Positions 2,927 to 50,536 of a DNA stretch of 64,000 bases are shown here, piece after piece (position 1 is the stretch's first letter; each line of letters starts with the position of its first letter). The translations under genes and the position numbers were made by a program. Origin of the DNA: Escherichia coli (GTDB lineage: Bacteria > Pseudomonadota > Gammaproteobacteria > Enterobacterales > Enterobacteriaceae). Where the stretch lies: assembly GCF_011045215.1 (NCBI RefSeq), contig NZ_CP049201.1; one strand, written 5' to 3'. Below the pieces are notes generated by a model that saw only the letters and a program-made list of their open reading frames with translations, did no database searches and was not told the origin of the DNA.

Positions 2927-3105
2927 ACGTAATTGCCGGATGCGACGCACGAGTGTTACGCCTGCCGCATCCGGCGATTTTCGTCGCTTACCCTAAATCC
3001 GCCATCAACATCTTCGATTTTACGTAGGTCGGATAAGGCGTCCACGCCGCATCCGACGATTTTCGTCGCTTACCCTAAATCCGCCATTAACACTTTGGAT
3101 TTACG
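2927..3105. repeat. REP-type palindromes with a tandemly duplicated ~88-bp unit (REP arm + argA 3' terminus)
   Basis: Palindrome gccggatgcgacgc...gcctgccgcatccggc; segment cgattttcgtcgcttaccctaaatccgccat occurs twice (approx 2969-3010 and 3057-3092), second copy overlapping the argA stop region. Confidence 0.6.
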
Positions 3106-5959: not shown

Positions 5960-6036
<77 letters not shown>

Positions 6037-7342: not shown

Positions 7343-7580
7343 TGTGATATTCTGTATGCCGTTTTTACGGATATGACAGGGTGAGGGATAACCTCACATC
7401 CTGATTATTGACTAAGTGCGCGTTGTTCATGCCGGATGCGGCGTGAACGCCTTATCCAGCCTACAAATCATGCAAATCCAAAATATTGCAGGAGTTATGT
7501 AGGCCTGATAAGCGTAGCGCATCAGGCATTTATGCGTTTAGGGTGAGGGATAACCTCGCCCTTTTTAATTCTGAGGTGCT
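7343..7580. repeat. REP/BIME-like palindromic cluster between mltA and tcdA
   Basis: gccggatgcggcgtgaacgccttatccagcctaca and aggcctgataagcgtagcgcatcaggc REP-type palindromes; small hairpin gggtgagggataacctc present twice (7379-7397, 7541-7561). Confidence 0.6.
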
Positions 7581-8387
7581 ATGTCTGTGGTAATTAGTGA
7601 TGCATGGCGTCAGCGTTTTGGTGGCACAGCGCGTCTGTATGGTGAAAAAGCGTTGCAACTGTTTGCTGACGCGCATATTTGTGTGGTTGGTATCGGTGGT
7701 GTCGGTTCCTGGACGGCGGAAGCGCTGGCGCGCACGGGGATTGGCGCAATCACGCTTATCGATATGGATGATGTGTGCGTCACCAATACCAATCGGCAAA
7801 TTCATGCCCTGCGCGATAACGTTGGGCTGGCAAAAGCGGAAGTCATGGCGGAACGTATTCGCCAGATTAACCCGGAGTGCCGTGTAACGGTGGTGGATGA
7901 TTTCGTGACGCCGGATAACGTAGCGCAATATATGAGTGCCGGTTATTCGTACGTGATTGATGCCATTGATAGTGTACGGCCCAAAGCGGCGCTGATTGCT
8001 TATTGTCGGCGCAATAAAATTCCGCTGGTCACGACCGGTGGCGCGGGTGGGCAGATTGACCCAACGCAGATTCAGGTTACCGATCTGGCGAAAACGATTC
8101 AGGACCCGCTGGCGGCGAAGTTGCGTGAGCGCCTGAAAAGCGATTTTGGCGTAGTGAAAAACAGTAAAGGTAAGCTCGGCGTGGATTGCGTGTTCTCTAC
8201 CGAAGCATTGGTGTACCCGCAGTCAGACGGCACGGTGTGTGCGATGAAAGCCACGGCGGAAGGACCAAAGCGGATGGATTGTGCATCTGGATTTGGCGCG
8301 GCAACTATGGTGACCGCCACCTTTGGGTTTGTTGCGGTTTCTCATGCGCTGAAGAAGATGATGGCGAAAGCGGCGCGTCAGGGGTAA
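7581..8387 (+). CDS. tcdA: tRNA threonylcarbamoyladenosine dehydratase TcdA/CsdL (268 aa, ThiF/MoeB-type E1-like)
   Basis: 268-aa ORF with GIGGVGSW nucleotide-binding motif; synteny with csdAE. Confidence 0.92.
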   Translation: MSVVISDAWRQRFGGTARLYGEKALQLFADAHICVVGIGGVGSWTAEALARTGIGAITLIDMDDVCVTNTNRQIHALRDNVGLAKAEVMAERIRQINPECRVTVVDDFVTPDNVAQYMSAGYSYVIDAIDSVRPKAALIAYCRRNKIPLVTTGGAGGQIDPTQIQVTDLAKTIQDPLAAKLRERLKSDFGVVKNSKGKLGVDCVFSTEALVYPQSDGTVCAMKATAEGPKRMDCASGFGAATMVTATFGFVAVSHALKKMMAKAARQG

Positions 8388-8437
8388 ACAATCAGGTCGG
8401 ATGCGACGCAAACGTCTTATCCGACCCGGTTCTGTGC
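8388..8437. repeat. REP-type palindrome between tcdA and csdE
   Basis: ggtcggatgcgacgcaaacgtcttatccgacc palindrome. Confidence 0.5.
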
Positions 8438-8881
8438 TTAAACCTGCTTCGTCGCAGCGATAATCGCCTCGCTTAACGCATTTAACCCCTGGCTGCGTGA
8501 GGCGCTAAGTTGCGCACGCAATCCCAGTTCATCAAACAATGCCAGCGGCGACTGTGCCTGCAATTCGGCGGCGGTTTTCCCCTCAACGGCAGTCAACAGC
8601 ACCGCCAGCAGGCCGCGCACTATACGTCCTTCGCTGTCGCCAAAGAAGTGCATTTTACCGTTTTCAGCCACGGTATATCCCAGCCAGACGCGGTTTTCGC
8701 ATCCGGCAATCTCTTTAGCCTGCGCTTTTAACTCGTCTGGCAAAGCCGGAAGCTGTTTCCCCAGCATGATCAACTGGCGATATTTATCTTCCCATTGCGT
8801 CAACGGTGCGAAGGTATTGCGTAACGTTTCTGCGGTTACGGTTGTGCCGAACGGGTGTCCGGCGAATTGCGGGTTCGTCAT
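8438..8881 (-). CDS. csdE: Sulfur acceptor protein CsdE (147 aa, SufE-like)
   Basis: 147-aa ORF; start overlaps csdA stop; synteny. Confidence 0.92.
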
Positions 8882-10086
8882 TAATCCACCAATAATTCCA
8901 GCGCGCGGTCAACGGCATTCACCAGCGCATCCACATCACTCTTTGTATTATATGGCGCAAAAGAGGCGCGCAGTGTGCCGGTTACGCCTAATTCTGCCAG
9001 TAGCGGCTGAGCGCAATGCTGCCCGGCGCGCAGGGCAATACCGTACTCCGCCAGCAGCGTCACCATATCGCTGTGATGAACGCCAGCAAAATCAAAGGCC
9101 AGCAGGCTGGAATCCTGGCAGCGGAATGAACGAAAGCCTGGACGTTTCGCCAGCGCTTCTTCTGCAAGCGTTGCCAGGCTACGGCTCCAGCTTTCGGCCT
9201 GGTTGATATCGTAATCTGCCAGCCATTCCAGCGCCGCGCTTAATCCTATGACACCAGCCACATTTGGCGTTCCTGCTTCCAGTTTCCACGGCGCAGATTG
9301 AGTCGTGAAGCCGTCAAAACTCACTTCGTGAATCATTTTTCCGCCGCCCAGCCAGGGTGACATTGCTTCCAGCAGTTCTGGTTTGCCATACAGCACGCCG
9401 ATACCTGTCGGGCCATACAGTTTGTGACCTGAAAAAGCATAGAAATCGATATCCAGTTGCTGAACATCCGCGGGGAAATGCACCGCCCCCTGAGCACCAT
9501 CAACCATCACCACCATCCCGGCTGAATGAGCAAAGGTAATCGCTCGCGCCAGATCCGGGCAACCGCCAGTAACGTTCGACATCTGACCCAACGCCAGAAT
9601 CCGACTACGGGGAGTAATCAGTTCTGGCAACAAATCGACATCCGGCAGTCGCTGCGCATTAAGCGGCAATTTCACCACTTTGGCTCCAGTTTGTTGGGCA
9701 ACCATCAGCCAGGGGACGAGGTTAGCGTGGTGTTCTGCCACGCTGACAATAATCTCATCGCCCGGTTGCAGACGCGGACGCGCATAGCATTGTGCCACCA
9801 TGTTGATGGATTCAGTGGTGCCGCGCGTCCAGACGATAGTTTTATCATCCGGTGCATTCAGTAATTGCGCCACTTTTTCCCGCGCAGCTTCATAACGCGC
9901 GGTCAGGCGTTGGGCTTCGGCAAACTGGCTGCGATGGACGTTTCCGGCGCTCAGACTGTAAAACTGTCGGGTGGCTTCAACCACGGCTTCAGGTTTAAGC
10001 GCGGTCGCGGCGCTGTCGAGATAGACGCCCGCATCCTGTAGAGCGGTAAACTGGGCGCGAAACTGCGCGGGATTAAAAACGTTCAT
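8881..10086 (-). CDS. csdA: Cysteine sulfinate desulfinase / cysteine desulfurase CsdA (401 aa)
   Basis: Track ORF 413 aa; recognised start [13 protein letters not shown] at 10086; class V aminotransferase-type sequence. Confidence 0.92.
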
Positions 10087-10277
10087 GGTACTCCTCGGCT
10101 TGATGCACCGATCGTGACGCAAAATTCACTTTGATACAAGGAGAGTGCTAACCATCAGAATTATCTGGATATCCTGGCGAAGCCGCGTCAGTAACATATG
10201 CTGAATAGTGTTAGGCGTTAATTTTAGCCTGTTAATCAATACTATTAAGATTTATTAATCGCTTTAAGGAGAAGATG

Positions 10278-10505
10278 ATGAAAAAGACTGCCGCAATTAT
10301 TTCTGCCTGTATGCTGACTTTTGCCCTGAGCGCCTGTTCCGGTTCGAACTATGTGATGCACACCAATGACGGACGTACCATCGTCTCTGACGGCAAACCA
10401 CAGACTGATAACGATACCGGTATGATTTCGTATAAAGACGCTAATGGCAGCAAACAGCAGATCAACCGTACCGACGTGAAAGAGATGGTCGAACTGGATC
10501 AGTAA
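10278..10505 (+). CDS. ygdI: Small lipoprotein YgdI (DUF903, 75 aa)
   Basis: MKKTAAIISACMLTFALSACSG signal/lipobox; length matches YgdI. Confidence 0.85.
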   Translation: MKKTAAIISACMLTFALSACSGSNYVMHTNDGRTIVSDGKPQTDNDTGMISYKDANGSKQQINRTDVKEMVELDQ

Positions 10506-10521
10506 TTCGCGATCGCAAGGT

Positions 10522-11230
10522 AATAAATATCCTCCGGCATAGCCGGAGGTTTTTCAAATGCGCCTATAAGGCTCTCTTACCAGCCGCGCCCTAACAGGCG
10601 CACACGATCTGACATTTGCATCCAACTTCGTTACTTACGGCCCGTAAACGGGCTGCCCGGATAGGGAATCGATAACTGCTCTCCCATTTCATCCTCTTCA
10701 AGCTGGTGCTTTATGTAATCCTGTATCTTCGCCGTGTTCTTACCCACCGTATCGACGTAGTACCCTCTGCACCAGAACTCCCTGTTCCTGTATTTGAATT
10801 TCAAATCCCCAAACTGCTCATAAAGCATCAGACTGCTTTTCCCTTTCAGATATCCCATAAAGCCGGATACGCTCATTTTGGGCGGGATCTCCACAAGCAT
10901 ATGGATATGATCTGCACAGCATTCAGCTTCAAGAATCCGTACGCTTTTCCACTCACACAGCTTTCTCAAAATACTGCCTATTGCTCTACGCTTCTCTCTG
11001 TAGAACACTTGTCTTCGGTATTTTGGCGCAAAAACTATGTGATATTTACAGTTCCATCGGGTGTGCGCTAAGCTCTTTTCGTTCCCCATTGGGACCCCCT
11101 TTTGATTTCTTGTTTGACACTTGCAGTTGCCAGACCGCAAGGTGTTTTAACAAATCAAAAGGGGTTTTAATAACTGGCTCAAAGCTGAAAGCTTTCCGGA
11201 ACCCCCAGCCTAGCTGGGGGTTTTCTGTGC
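10522..11230 (-). mobile_element. IS200 (IS200/IS605 family) insertion sequence, about 0.7 kb; ends approximate
   Basis: Contains a 152-aa Y1 (HuH) transposase near-identical to Salmonella IS200 TnpA; subterminal hairpins at 10531-10549 and 11200-11222; no terminal inverted repeats expected for this family. Confidence 0.85.
10631..11089 (-). CDS. tnpA: IS200 transposase TnpA (152 aa)
   Basis: MGNEKSLAHTRWNCKYHIVFAPKYRRQ...HIHML...GSPFTGRK; track ORF is extended 17 codons upstream of the likely start. Confidence 0.93.
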   Translation of the reverse strand: MGNEKSLAHTRWNCKYHIVFAPKYRRQVFYREKRRAIGSILRKLCEWKSVRILEAECCADHIHMLVEIPPKMSVSGFMGYLKGKSSLMLYEQFGDLKFKYRNREFWCRGYYVDTVGKNTAKIQDYIKHQLEEDEMGEQLSIPYPGSPFTGRK

Positions 11231-11232
11231 AC

Positions 11233-11438
11233 AAAAAAAAGCACCGCAATTAGGCGGTGCTACATTAATCACTATGGACAGACAGGGTAAATGTACAGGA
11301 AGTGAAAAAAGGTAGCTTTGCTACCATGGTCTGAATCGCAGACCAATTGCAAACACAACAACACAACATCACAACCGTAAGCCAAAAGTTCACCAGAACA
11401 CGCATTCCGATAAAACTTTTCGTTCCGGCTCAGGAAGT
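11233..11438 (-). ncRNA. gcvB: GcvB small regulatory RNA
   Basis: Reverse complement matches recalled GcvB sequence (ACTTCCTGAGCCGGAACGAAAAGTTTTATCGGAATGCGTGTTCTGGTGAACTTTTGGCTTACGG...) ending in terminator GCACCGCCTAATTGCGGTGC + U8; divergent from gcvA. Confidence 0.93.
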
Positions 11439-11566: not shown

Positions 11567-12484
11567 ATGTCTAAACGATTACCACCGCTAAATGCCTTAC
11601 GAGTTTTTGATGCCGCAGCACGCCATTTAAGTTTCACTCGCGCAGCAGAAGAGCTTTTTGTGACCCAGGCCGCAGTAAGTCATCAAATCAAGTCTCTTGA
11701 GGATTTTCTGGGGCTAAAACTGTTCCGCCGCCGTAATCGTTCACTCCTGCTGACCGAGGAAGGTCAAAGCTATTTCCTCGATATCAAAGAGATATTTTCG
11801 CAATTAACCGAAGCGACGCGTAAACTCCAGGCCCGTAGCGCCAAGGGGGCGTTGACGGTCAGTTTACTCCCCAGTTTCGCCATTCATTGGTTGGTTCCGC
11901 GACTTTCCAGCTTTAATTCAGCTTATCCGGGAATTGACGTTCGAATCCAGGCGGTTGATCGTCAGGAAGATAAGCTGGCGGATGATGTTGATGTGGCGAT
12001 ATTTTATGGTCGGGGCAACTGGCCGGGGCTACGGGTGGAAAAACTGTACGCCGAATATTTATTGCCGGTGTGTTCGCCGCTACTGCTGACTGGCGAAAAA
12101 CCCTTGAAGACCCCGGAAGATCTGGCTAAACATACGTTATTACATGATGCGTCACGCCGTGACTGGCAGACATATACCCGACAGTTGGGGTTAAATCATA
12201 TCAACGTGCAGCAAGGGCCAATTTTTAGCCATAGCGCCATGGTGCTGCAAGCGGCTATCCACGGGCAGGGAGTGGCGCTGGCAAATAACGTGATGGCGCA
12301 ATCTGAAATTGAAGCCGGACGTCTTGTTTGCCCGTTTAATGATGTTCTGGTCAGTAAAAACGCTTTTTATCTGGTTTGTCATGACAGCCAGGCAGAACTG
12401 GGTAAAATAGCCGCCTTTCGCCAATGGATCCTGGCGAAAGCCGCTGCTGAACAAGAAAAATTCCGCTTTCGTTATGAACAATAA
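11567..12484 (+). CDS. gcvA: LysR-family glycine cleavage system regulator GcvA (305 aa)
   Basis: 305-aa ORF, N-terminal HTH (MSKRLPPLNALRVFDAAARHLSFTRAAEELFVTQAAVSHQIKSLE). Confidence 0.95.
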   Translation: MSKRLPPLNALRVFDAAARHLSFTRAAEELFVTQAAVSHQIKSLEDFLGLKLFRRRNRSLLLTEEGQSYFLDIKEIFSQLTEATRKLQARSAKGALTVSLLPSFAIHWLVPRLSSFNSAYPGIDVRIQAVDRQEDKLADDVDVAIFYGRGNWPGLRVEKLYAEYLLPVCSPLLLTGEKPLKTPEDLAKHTLLHDASRRDWQTYTRQLGLNHINVQQGPIFSHSAMVLQAAIHGQGVALANNVMAQSEIEAGRLVCPFNDVLVSKNAFYLVCHDSQAELGKIAAFRQWILAKAAAEQEKFRFRYEQ

Positions 12485-47550: not shown

Positions 47551-48456
47551 TTACCAGCGACCGGACGCGCCGCCACCGCCAGAAGAACCGCCCCCGCCGC
47601 TAAATCCGCCGCCACTTGAGCCTCCACCGGAAGAGGGTGAAGAAGAACCTTTTCTTGAAGCTCTTTCTTTACTGAGTTTTTTGTATTTGGCGCGTAGCTT
47701 TTTATTGACGATAAGCCAAAAAATAACCAGTGGTACGATCGCAAAAGGCGTTAACATACCGCAGGCAACGATTAAATTGGTCCATGGTCCTGGCTCGGCA
47801 ACATAGAGGAATACCATCCCGTAAATGGCGCCAGTGAGAGTGATCCAGGGTAAATTCGACGGATCGGTAAAAACAATAAAATATGAAAGTACCGCCAGCA
47901 ATATAATTACAGCAAGCGATAATGGAATAGGGGGATTGATACTGTAATAATCCCCCCTGTCTTCCGGTAATTCACCATTCAACAGAAGCGCGCCGATATT
48001 TTCGCTTGCCAGTGTTAATCCACCCATCAGGTCATCACTTTTGAAGGCAGGGATCAATATATCCCTGATAATTTTCGCCGCTTGCAGGTCGGTAACCACC
48101 CCTTCCAGCCCGTAGCCAACCTCAATACGAACAGCATGATCCTCCCAGGCAACCAGAAGTAAAATACCATCGTTTCTCTGCTTATCTCCCAGTTTCCAGC
48201 TATCAAAAACGCGTGTTGCATATTGTTCAATGGAATCGTCTCCGGTGGACGGCACTACTAATACAGCGACCTGCGCCCGTGTTTTATGTGTAATATCCTG
48301 CAGTTGCTGTGTCAGTGATTGTTGTTCAGAAGTGCTTAACGTACCAGTAATATCGGTCACCTGTTGGCGCAGTTCCGGCACAGCAATTTGCTGGGCAAGC
48401 CCAGGAAGGCACCACAAAGTGAATAGAATAAAGATTAAGCGCATTACGATCACCAA
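47551..48456 (-). CDS. TPM-domain (YgcG-like) membrane protein, paralog 1 (301 aa); signal peptide, TPM domain, TM segments, Gly/Ser-rich C-terminus ending SGRW
   Basis: Signal-like N-terminus; TPM-like block VTDITGTLS...VAVLVVP...IEQYATRVFDSWKLGDK...DGILLLVAWEDHAVRIEVGYGLEG; hydrophobic segments; tail GGGSSGGGFSGGGGSSGGGGASGRW. Alternative start at 48444. Confidence 0.8.
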   Translation of the reverse strand: MVIVMRLIFILFTLWCLPGLAQQIAVPELRQQVTDITGTLSTSEQQSLTQQLQDITHKTRAQVAVLVVPSTGDDSIEQYATRVFDSWKLGDKQRNDGILLLVAWEDHAVRIEVGYGLEGVVTDLQAAKIIRDILIPAFKSDDLMGGLTLASENIGALLLNGELPEDRGDYYSINPPIPLSLAVIILLAVLSYFIVFTDPSNLPWITLTGAIYGMVFLYVAEPGPWTNLIVACGMLTPFAIVPLVIFWLIVNKKLRAKYKKLSKERASRKGSSSPSSGGGSSGGGFSGGGGSSGGGGASGRW

Positions 48457-49598
48457 CGGCCGGATGAACCGCCGCCTCCTGAAGAACCGCCACCACCGCG
48501 GAAAGAATTTCTCGACGAAGAGCGAGAGTGAGCATTACGATTCCCCGTTTTCCTGTTGCTTTTTTCTCCTGACCCCAGCTTAAGATTGCCAGTAAATTTG
48601 GCCACAATGATCAGCAGAACGATGCCAGCAATGGTTATTGGGCCGATAAAATGATCAATTAACCCAATAATTGTTGAGATGAATGCAATATCTTTATTAC
48701 TGGCGAACACCAGGCACCATCCCACAATAATTATCAGCATCACGACAAACAATGAATTTCGTCCTGATTCACGAACCTGCGGAGTCTTCTTTTGTTTTTT
48801 CACTTTAGAGTTTTTATTTTTTGGGGTCAGCATCATAGGAAATACGCGGCACATATTAAAAACTACCGCGAGACGCTGCTTGCAGGTTGTTGCTAACAAT
48901 AAACTAAAACAAACGACCGATACCCGCCGAATGATGACATCGTCCTGAAAGGAGAAAAACCAGACCATAGGGGTAATCATCGATATCATCCATATGCCAC
49001 GCCGTGGGCGGCTGGCAAATCGCCAGAGGACAACGATGGCAACGATCATCAGCAGTGTCCAGGCAAGACATGGCAGCGAACGTTGCGGATTAGCAAACAG
49101 ATGATTGGCTAAAGCATCCAAAGGGCTAAGGTTCGCTTTGATATGGGTAAACTGTGCGATGCTTTCAATTCCGCCCGTTAATCCAGCAAAGAGATTGTTT
49201 TTTTCGAATTCTGGCTGCATATGGTAACGAACAATTTGCGCAGCTTGTTCCGGCGGCAACATCTCTTCCAGTCCATGTCCAATCTTCATTGACGCCAGCC
49301 CTTCCGGCCATACGACGAGAATTAAGATACCTTCGCCATATCGCTTCTCTCCAACGGGTTTCCAGTGATATACCCCGTATCTCTGCGAGGCTGCAAGTTT
49401 AATGTTTTTGCCCCCTGTGGTCGGCGTAACCAACACGGCCACCTGGAAGTGGTTTTGCTGCTCGAGAGTCTGTAATTGTTGAGTTAAAGCAGTTTGTTCT
49501 TCTGTCGTTAATGTCCCGGTTAAGTCAGTTACTGAAGGCCATTGTTCAGCGAATACCTGAAAACCGCATAGCATCAGAAGTAAGAGAAAAATACGCAT
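48450..49598 (-). CDS. TPM-domain (YgcG-like) membrane protein, divergent paralog 2 (382 aa) with extended membrane region and SGRW tail
   Basis: N-terminus MRIFLLLLMLCGFQVFAEQWPSVTDLTGTLTTEEQ...; several hydrophobic segments, Lys-rich linker (KNKNSKVKKQKK), tail RGGGGSSGGGGSSGRW; overlaps paralog 1 start by 7 nt. Confidence 0.8.
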   Translation of the reverse strand: MRIFLLLLMLCGFQVFAEQWPSVTDLTGTLTTEEQTALTQQLQTLEQQNHFQVAVLVTPTTGGKNIKLAASQRYGVYHWKPVGEKRYGEGILILVVWPEGLASMKIGHGLEEMLPPEQAAQIVRYHMQPEFEKNNLFAGLTGGIESIAQFTHIKANLSPLDALANHLFANPQRSLPCLAWTLLMIVAIVVLWRFASRPRRGIWMISMITPMVWFFSFQDDVIIRRVSVVCFSLLLATTCKQRLAVVFNMCRVFPMMLTPKNKNSKVKKQKKTPQVRESGRNSLFVVMLIIIVGWCLVFASNKDIAFISTIIGLIDHFIGPITIAGIVLLIIVAKFTGNLKLGSGEKSNRKTGNRNAHSRSSSRNSFRGGGGSSGGGGSSGRW

Positions 49599-49612
49599 AT
49601 CAATTCCTTTTG

Positions 49613-50536
49613 TTACCAGCGCCCGGAAGCGCCACCGCCACCAGATGAACCGCCACCACCGCTGAAATTGTCATTGTTGAATGAAGAGGATGACGATGAT
49701 GAATAGTGGGAGGAAGAATTGCTTCTTGTATGGCGTGATGGCTGGTTGACATCACGCATCAAATCCCGAACTTTTTTGCCGAAGGGGGTAAAAGCGATGG
49801 CGACAGCCAGGAACGGTGTGGCGAAGCAGAGTAATGTTGCGAGTACTCCCCAGCTTCCGCTGAAGCCTGCTATAGGTAAAACAAAGGCCAGTACAATAGC
49901 TGCGAAGCAAATTACTCCCAGCGTTTTGATATATCCTCTGGCAGAAATAAACGTCAGTACTATCGCCCAGACTAACAATGCCCACCAACCGCTAAAGGGC
50001 AAAGGGTGATCGGTCGGTGTTATCGTTGCTAAATTATTCCCCGTAAGACGACTTTCAATATCGCTGATCCCCTTTTGTAAACCGCCAGCCAGGTCGCCTT
50101 TTTTAAATGCAGGAATAATACTGTTGCGAATAATTTTCCCGGACTGTGCATCCGTAATAATACCTTCCAGCCCGTAACCGATTTCAATACGCACGGTATG
50201 ATCCTGCCAGGCGACTAACAGTAGAACGCCATCATCACGGTCTTTATCACCCGGTTTCCAGCTATCGAATACCCGCGTTGCGTACTGCTCGATGGTTTCA
50301 TCGCCTGTTGTATCAACCACTAACACGACCAACTGTGCGTGGTTTTTTTGCGTCAGGGCTTTAATCTGGTTGGTCAGGGTGTTTACTTCGCTGTTTGTTA
50401 ATGTGCCGGTTAAGTCATTCACATACTTGGGGGATTCAGGTACTGGAATTTGTGTGGCAAACACAGATGAACAGAAGAAAGCCATAAGGAAGATAAAATT
50501 TCGCATAGAACTTCCCCGCTTAATGAGCATTAGCAT
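49613..50536 (-). CDS. TPM-domain (YgcG-like) membrane protein, paralog 3 (307 aa; likely start at 50506)
   Basis: VNDLTGTLTNSEV...LVVLVVDTTGDETIEQYATRVFDSWKPGDKDRDDGVLLLVAWQDHTVRIEIGYGLEG, closely similar to paralog 1; tail SGGGGSSGGGGASGRW. Confidence 0.8.
   Translation of the reverse strand: MLMLIKRGSSMRNFIFLMAFFCSSVFATQIPVPESPKYVNDLTGTLTNSEVNTLTNQIKALTQKNHAQLVVLVVDTTGDETIEQYATRVFDSWKPGDKDRDDGVLLLVAWQDHTVRIEIGYGLEGIITDAQSGKIIRNSIIPAFKKGDLAGGLQKGISDIESRLTGNNLATITPTDHPLPFSGWWALLVWAIVLTFISARGYIKTLGVICFAAIVLAFVLPIAGFSGSWGVLATLLCFATPFLAVAIAFTPFGKKVRDLMRDVNQPSRHTRSNSSSHYSSSSSSSFNNDNFSGGGGSSGGGGASGRW

Follow-up and report, generated by a model that had tools for sequence, protein, structure and literature searches.

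The window analysed here, a stretch of 64,000 nt of E. coli DNA, contains a complete 711-bp IS200C-type element whose left end directly abuts the terminator of the small RNA gene gcvB. We conclude, with a probability of roughly 0.85, that an IS200C copy entered by single-strand 'peel and paste' transposition immediately 3' of the final T of the gcvB terminator, that this site was not hit by chance, and that the outcome is neutral. The element itself is a known one; its site is new but characteristic, and the insertion is rare but ordinary.

An IS200C element between ygdI and gcvB

The window is collinear with the 2.89–2.95 Mb region of K-12, with ~98–99% identity, and contains a single IS200 copy. 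The locus around that copy is organised as follows.

~10275–10505, + strand: ygdI, encoding the DUF903 lipoprotein YgdI (75 aa); intact, stop codon at 10503–10505
10506–10521: 16-nt spacer between ygdI and the IS; no change relative to K-12
10522–11232, − strand: complete IS200C-type element, 711 bp, delimited by comparison with the K-12 empty site and by the ends of other copies
11233–11240, − strand: U8 tract of gcvB, the integration target (TTNTT); all retained
11240–11261, − strand: gcvB terminator stem-loop, AGCACCGC-CTAATT-GCGGTGCT; intact
11233–11438, − strand: gcvB sRNA gene; Rfam RF00022, 199 bits, full length (1–204)
11567–12484, + strand: gcvA, divergent from gcvB; intact

The element begins 16 nt past the ygdI stop codon and ends 0 nt from the gcvB U-tract, with tnpA on the same strand as gcvB. 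The initial annotation had placed an IS200 in the gap between the convergent ygdI and gcvB, with its other end near the U-tract of the gcvB terminator, and both statements agree with these distances. Of the range that it proposed, 10522–11240, the start is exact, whereas the end overshoots the true end (11232) by 8 nt, because the last 8 nt are the A8/U8 tract of the gcvB terminator. YgdI differs from its K-12 counterpart by one N-to-S substitution.

Both junctions are defined by alignment with K-12 MG1655. The empty site of K-12 reads ...CGCAAGGT/AAAAAAAAGCACCGC... (with longer flanks, ...GATCAGTAATTCGCGATCGCAAGGT/AAAAAAAAGCACCGCAATTAGGCGGTGCT...; the slash marks the junction), and the window differs from it by a clean insertion of exactly 711 bases at 10522–11232, between GGT and A8. 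The ends of the element, GTGCACAGAA... and ...GGATATTTATT on the tnpA-sense strand, are common to 13 other IS200C copies with unrelated flanks, which fixes the boundaries at 10522–11232. Because element and target both end in TT, an insertion of 711 bp with no duplication and one of 709 bp with a TT duplication would give the same sequence. Apart from this 2-nt ambiguity, target-site duplication is absent in the comparison of empty and occupied sites at gcvB and at amiC. In the latter case, K-12 and the window itself represent the empty site (GGCGCTTTTTT/ATGGGAG), and the occupied site is a simple insertion after the last T.

Authenticity of the insertion

The insertion is rare. Flanking DNA is present in at least 5422 of 5426 complete E. 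coli genomes, with best identities of 99.6% and 98.9% for the two flanks, and the IS is at the gcvB site in none of them; likewise, no match spanning the junction was found in these 5426 genomes. An exact-match search of JGI metagenome contigs for both junctions returned none. Assemblies of reads that bear the insertion were traced through exact matches to the YgdI and CsdA protein variants encoded at this locus. Contig 440 of Logan SRR11014969 is 100% identical to the window over 3050 nt (window positions 7502–10551) and stops inside the right end of the IS, the usual behaviour of a repeat when short reads are assembled. Contig 47 of Logan ERR3329057 spans gcvA, the whole IS, ygdI and csdA; its flanks match the window at 100% identity, and 7 apparent substitutions and an apparent 1-bp deletion are present in this assembly. 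The empty site ...GGT/A8GCACC... is also present in three contigs that encode the same YgdI variant. Because two read sets carry the junction while contigs with the same YgdI carry the empty site, we regard the insertion, judging from these assemblies, as a real and recent event confined to a single lineage. It serves best as a marker of that lineage, being represented by two public read sets and by 0 of 5426 complete genomes.

Taken by itself, the absence of the junction from the complete genomes and from the metagenome contigs could cast doubt on the window: the junction might be an assembly artefact or a chimera, or the 711 bp might be ancestral and have been lost from K-12 and other strains. 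Both readings are extremely improbable and were rejected on the basis of the empty sites and the two Logan read sets. Specifically, the flanks occur in nearly all of the complete genomes and the IS at this site in none of them; the occupied site minus the IS is exactly the empty site; copies of the element occur at many further loci; and two independent read sets reproduce the junction with identical flanks. The claim in the initial annotation that the insertion is strain-specific and absent from K-12 is borne out at the ygdI/gcvB locus, where K-12 has an empty site and none of the 5426 complete genomes has the insertion. IS200 is not known to occur elsewhere in the K-12 genome.

Identity and anatomy of the element

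The element has the organisation of the IS200 group of the IS200/IS605 family. Its features are listed below.

10631–11089, − strand: tnpA, encoding a 152-aa Y1 HUH transposase (coordinates include the stop codon); uninterrupted, with H61-I-H63 and Y125
10522–10549, − strand: right end, assigned by folding, comprising a 9-nt tip (ATATTTATT, sense strand) and a subterminal hairpin
10531–10549, − strand: right-end hairpin CCTCCGGC-TAT-GCCGGAGG; fold z −3.1, 9 nt from the tip
11200–11222, − strand: left-end subterminal hairpin AACCCCCAGC-TAG-GCTGGGGGTT; fold z −3.6, 10 nt from the tip
11223–11232, − strand: left-end tip, 10 nt, GTGCACAGAA; common to other IS200C copies
11096–11164, − strand: 5'UTR stem-loop in which the Shine-Dalgarno sequence AAGGGGGU is buried; −40.4 kcal/mol, z −3.4
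11099–11222, − strand: region recognised by the Rfam model RF01405 (STnc490), which covers the IS200 left end and the tnpA 5'UTR; 146.4 bits, compared with a gathering score of 56
~11081–11170, + strand: putative antisense RNA art200, by homology only; fold z −4.7

The only long open reading frame in the 711 bp is tnpA, and there is no tnpB. The product matches the Pfam profile Y1_Tnp (PF01797) with E=4.4e-38 and the NCBIfam profile transpos_IS200 (NF033573) with 147.7 bits, against a cutoff of 55; the transposase is therefore IS200-like. Y125 is the residue whose substitution in Y125F yields a catalytically dead IS200 mutant (PMC4513863). The element lacks terminal inverted repeats: its two tips, GTGCACAGAA and ATATTTATT, do not form such a pair. 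The right-end hairpin is terminator-like in both directions; on the + strand it is followed by TTTTTC and faces ygdI. The left-end hairpin of IS200 is a published bidirectional terminator, reported to stop ~85% of incoming transcripts, and a 5'UTR stem-loop sequestering the Shine-Dalgarno sequence has been described for Salmonella IS200 (PMC4513863). Profiles, the HUH and Y125 residues and the folds all bear out the initial annotation, which described a complete IS200 encoding a Y1 transposase of 152 aa and carrying subterminal hairpins. At the level of sequence, every feature that defines IS200 and IS200C is present, and the element is an intact, potentially active IS200C-type IS.

Among E. 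coli elements that RefSeq annotates as IS200C, the best alignment over the full length (1–711) has 99.7% identity (E. coli GF4-3). In a spread sample of 40 matches, full-length copies have 97.2–99.7% identity and those annotated as IS200C 98.2–99.7%. A copy covering at least 80% of the element is found in 2063 of 5426 complete E. coli genomes, while 2330 of the 5426 have no match to it at all. Other E. coli genomes encode exactly the same TnpA protein at the ycdU site. The element shares termini, hairpins, 152-aa TnpA and kind of target with E. coli IS200C, and its location alone is different.

Salmonella enterica IS200, for which the reference is said to be Lam and Roth (1983), has ~92% nucleotide identity to the element, as judged from one plasmid copy in the spread sample. 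It resembles the element in its single tnpA, its stem-loop sequestering the Shine-Dalgarno sequence, its art200/STnc490 region and Y125 (PMC4513863, PMC5435999). Its left-end terminator hairpin lies at ~nt 11–34, as it does here. The quoted length is 707 bp (PMC4513863), compared with 711 bp here, and the sRNA functions have been shown in Salmonella, whereas here they are assigned by homology. Yersinia pestis IS1541, with 87% identity, has a left-end hairpin identical over 23 nt and uses the same hairpin and TTNTT target at ~55 sites. It differs in its left-end tip (GTGCCCAGAA), its far higher copy number and its tandem dimers.

The better-studied IS608 and ISDra2 share with the element a Y1 HUH transposase, subterminal hairpins in place of inverted repeats, duplication-free integration 3' of a short specific sequence, and a guide 5' of the foot of the left-end hairpin. 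Unlike the element, they carry tnpB, and their targets, TTAC and TTGAT, need no adjacent hairpin.

Consequences for gcvB and ygdI

The gcvB gene is identical to that of K-12 at 206 of 206 positions, and the terminator stem and all eight U residues are unchanged. Folding as DNA and as RNA places the gcvB hairpin next to the left-end hairpin of the IS, with no competing structure. With stem and U8 kept, gcvB unchanged and the two hairpins folding independently, the suggestion in the initial annotation that the IS end hairpin could alter gcvB 3' end formation is unsupported, and an altered gcvB 3' end appears unlikely. Disruption of the gcvB terminator by the IS hairpin was rejected as the default reading, because both hairpins are kept in the folds.

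On the other side of the element, the right-end hairpin and the TTTTTC behind it are scored as a terminator directed towards ygdI, located 26 nt past the ygdI stop codon; in K-12, the sole hairpin facing ygdI lacks a T-tail. Because tnpA lies on the same strand as gcvB, gcvB read-through runs into the left-end hairpin of the IS, and tnpA now lies behind two serial terminators, namely the gcvB terminator and its own left-end hairpin. From this arrangement, it is plausible that the IS hairpins insulate ygdI and gcvB from each other's read-through.

Such insulation by two IS hairpins, or a change in the 3' end or stability of gcvB, would amount to a regulatory consequence of the insertion. The gain by ygdI of a canonical-looking terminator in place of a hairpin without T-tail points in this direction, as do the reported efficiency of the left-end hairpin and a predicted pairing, in read-through RNA, of the left-end tip with an internal segment of gcvB. 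We nevertheless consider a regulatory consequence improbable, because gcvB and its terminator are the same as in K-12, the difference is limited to sequence downstream of the release point, and IS200 uses the same kind of site everywhere, so that no locus-specific function is needed. We infer instead a neutral 'safe-harbour' insertion that leaves both neighbours intact, and the consequence at the ygdI/gcvB locus itself would be slight.

IS200 copies lie directly behind terminators

The position behind the gcvB terminator is not peculiar to this copy. The first BLAST matches of the element to other copies ran into the flanks because the copies behind sodA and gyrB are also located on an A-tract and a GC-hairpin. 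Ten more E. coli copies, drawn at even intervals from the ranked matches, lie at ycdU, potE, an integrase island, pqqU, deoD, cysH, amiC, ccmH, a prophage gpT and plaP. At all 13 E. coli IS200C sites inspected, the left end abuts a GC hairpin followed by a T-run ending in TTNTT. A co-oriented gene is annotated just upstream at 12 of the 13; at the remaining one, the integrase island, the nearest co-oriented annotated gene is ~0.8 kb away.

For a wider survey, the exact 23-nt left-end hairpin was used as bait with one genome per species. The survey yielded at least 120 loci, all from close relatives of IS200 because of the exact bait, with ~55 sites from a single Y. pestis genome. Among the matches listed, hosts include Y. 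pestis, Vibrio, Brenneria, Pluralibacter, Edwardsiella and Dickeya, together with metagenome-assembled genomes labelled Bacillota, Mailhella/Desulfovibrio, Oxalobacter and others. A strict terminator had to have a fully paired stem of 5 or more base pairs, 3 or more of them G-C, a loop of 3–8 nt, and a T-rich tail running right up to the IS tip. Among the matches listed, 92 of 119 unique non-tandem sites pass this test, compared with 0.26% of 1.76 million control positions taken from the same loci. By eye, most of the 27 sites that fail (of the same 119 among the matches listed) have imperfect stems.

The flanks of 131 sites have the consensus TTNTT immediately before the IS. Specifically, T is found at −1 in 130/131, at −2 in 129/131, at −4 in 113/131 and at −5 in 126/131, while −3 is free and the stem positions further upstream are G/C-rich. 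A hairpin lies just upstream of the pentanucleotide at 86 of 107 IS sites, compared with 9.5% of background TTNTT sites. The right end of the element is itself a hairpin followed by ATATTTATT, and thus ends in TTATT. In Y. pestis, head-to-tail dimers of IS1541 have the left end of one copy abutting the right end of another.

A statistical association of IS200 with terminators is already on record (10.1101/2025.07.22.666184), which limits any claim to novelty. That preprint, of 2025–26, describes sequences resembling terminators directly upstream of ISs, a signal that is strongest for IS200/IS605; in its Supplementary Table 1, 40.2% of 20314 IS200-family copies have one just outside and upstream, compared with 0.2% inside. 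It was the only directly relevant work retrieved by full-text searching on IS200 and terminators. In the literature searched, with older IS200/IS1541 papers outside its scope, we found no statement of the 0-nt junction rule, the TTNTT consensus or the resemblance to the right end. Nor did we find target choice by the IS200 transposase defined in the accessible literature; the TTNTT rule provides a concrete, testable target model.

Targeting or selection

The pattern suggests how a target might be read. The IS200 group integrates directly behind a GC-rich hairpin and a short T-run ending in TTNTT. Such a target is in effect the DNA image of an intrinsic terminator and resembles the element's own right end, the hairpin followed by ATATTTATT. 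IS608 recognises its target, TTAC, through a guide tetranucleotide located 5' of the foot of the left-end hairpin; its integration tolerates double-stranded DNA on the 5' side of the target and is inhibited by SSB. In our element, the left-end tip has AGAA just 5' of the hairpin foot, and the bases 5' of both hairpin feet are A-rich (...CAGAA/AACCCCC at the left end, ...GAAAAA/CCTCCGG at the right end; the slash marks the foot). A-rich bases at these positions fit T-rich cleavage sites, and by analogy with the IS608 guide the left-end AGAA probably pairs with the T-rich target.

The hairpin of the target would have a role of its own. In single-stranded DNA, the terminator hairpin would extrude. 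It would then either keep a short SSB-free T-rich tail available or be bound as a pseudo right end, and integration would occur 3' of TTNTT. We therefore propose, tentatively and at a little less than even odds, that IS200-group transposases read terminators in single-stranded DNA as a hairpin with a TTNTT tail that mimics their own right end. If this is true, it explains the target choice of IS200 and IS1541, their intergenic distribution and the tandem dimers, and the gcvB insertion is one instance. In addition, precise landing behind terminators would explain the harmless persistence of IS200 and IS1541, whose activity is very low.

Alternatively, the pattern could be produced by selection only: IS200 would enter any T-rich pentanucleotide, and the surviving copies would be the harmless ones, shielded from read-through behind terminators. 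The sites are indeed intergenic gene ends, where insertions are expected to be harmless; the preprint cited above (10.1101/2025.07.22.666184) reads the association as a niche that limits transposase expression; and the IS608 paradigm requires a short single-stranded target rather than a hairpin. Purifying selection against insertions elsewhere could yield part of the terminator pattern. As the whole explanation, we consider selection rather unlikely, and less likely than targeting, because many variants of the element, in many hosts, have an offset of exactly 0 nt, and because one copy lies inside a prophage tail operon and yet directly behind a hairpin and T6. Two further observations weigh against it. 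Other harmless T-rich intergenic positions are unused, with a hairpin at 80% of IS sites and at 9.5% of background TTNTT sites, and in IS1541 tandems the left end of one copy directly follows the right end of another, itself composed of a hairpin and TTATT.

Strand context and related insertion strategies

GC skew indicates that the + strand of the window is leading-strand sequence, and therefore the active (top) strand of the gcvB copy is on the leading-strand template. IS608 and ISDra2 favour the other orientation, with the active strand on the lagging-strand template, a bias that the gcvB copy does not follow. A single case is no test of the lagging-strand rule. Single-stranded DNA generated by transcription at the strongly expressed gcvB terminator, rather than the lagging-strand template, may have helped the insertion.

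IS1541 is also known between pheL and pheA, i.e. behind an attenuator. Annotators should expect IS200 and IS1541 behind terminators, including those of sRNA genes and attenuators.

Group IIC introns insert just after intrinsic terminators. Together with ISs that target REP sequences, such as ISPpu9, which is reported to insert in REP sequences, they use a structured extragenic motif as a safe landing site, as the element does here. The likeness is an analogy only, since the enzymes and mechanisms, retrohoming for the introns and DDE/DEDD transposition for the REP-targeting ISs, are unrelated to those of IS200.

Another carrier of the insertion and other integration sites

Contig 47 of Logan accession ERR3329057 (L147) carries an insertion site identical to that of the window, with flanks that are 100% identical. 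The two IS copies differ over the equivalent of window 10690-11035. Specifically, seven substitutions relative to the window bring the ERR3329057 copy closer to the common IS200C sequence. This copy also lacks 1 bp, at window 11035, and the deletion leaves a tnpA call of only 81 aa. These differences could reflect mixing of IS copies in the assembly, gene conversion, or true decay.

In the E. coli CD45 prophage (L135), IS200C occupies locus position 1201-1911 within a phage tail operon, between the gene for tail assembly protein T and the tape-measure gene. A hairpin followed by T6 immediately precedes the element, as at other sites.

The related IS1541 forms head-to-tail tandems in Yersinia pestis NCTC5923 (L070, L071, L073, and L117). 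At the tandem junction, the right end, ...CCGGAGGATATTTATT, is directly fused to the left end, GTGCCCAGAA. This arrangement is compatible with a right end that acts as a target for integration, and also with a retained structure resembling a circle junction.

RNA features at the left end

At window 11099-11222, the tnpA-sense strand matches the Rfam model RF01405 (STnc490), and the left-end terminator hairpin falls within this match. According to PMC4513863, STnc490/art200 is the antisense transcript; the Rfam strand of RF01405 appears not to match art200.

For a hypothetical RNA that reads through the gcvB terminator, base-pairing is predicted between the left-end tip UGUGCACAGA (11223-11232, minus strand) and UCUGUCCAUAGUG, a segment of gcvB (approximately 11270-11285, minus strand), and the predicted pairing would enclose the gcvB terminator hairpin. 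This modelled pairing is probably a coincidence.

Left-end hairpin in MAGs with labels outside Enterobacterales

Among the loci listed, the exact 23-nt IS200 left-end hairpin also occurs in metagenome-assembled genomes (MAGs) labelled Bacillota, Peptococcaceae, Mailhella/Desulfovibrio, Oxalobacter, Saccharibacteria, and Elusimicrobiaceae (L005-L008, L010, L012-L024, L025-L027, L029-L033, L049-L054, and L057-L065, including L060 and L061). The hairpins stand near contig ends, mostly at a distance of ~15-130 nt and in a few loci up to ~700 nt, which indicates that the IS200-like elements in these MAGs are multi-copy. Either very close relatives of IS200 have spread far beyond Enterobacterales, or the bins are contaminated.

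Differences from K-12 and other features away from the IS

Two further RNA features were annotated in the window:

5960-6036, minus strand, initiator tRNA-Met gene, one copy
7464-7506, plus strand, Rfam match to ES036 (CssrF), 46.5 bits

The single tRNA-Met gene compares with the metZ-metW-metV triplet in K-12, and the alignment of this region has the 110-bp repeats reduced to one copy. A minor break in collinearity with K-12 lies between recD and argA (window 3024-3048). In the eno-queE interval (window 47633-51087), ~3.5 kb has no K-12 alignment, and GC content falls to 0.46 in that stretch. The interval contains four ORFs, all on the minus strand (two with weak TPM/Psb32-like hits, one LemA/MamQ-like, and one without a family), whereas that of K-12 contains only ygcG and yqcG.
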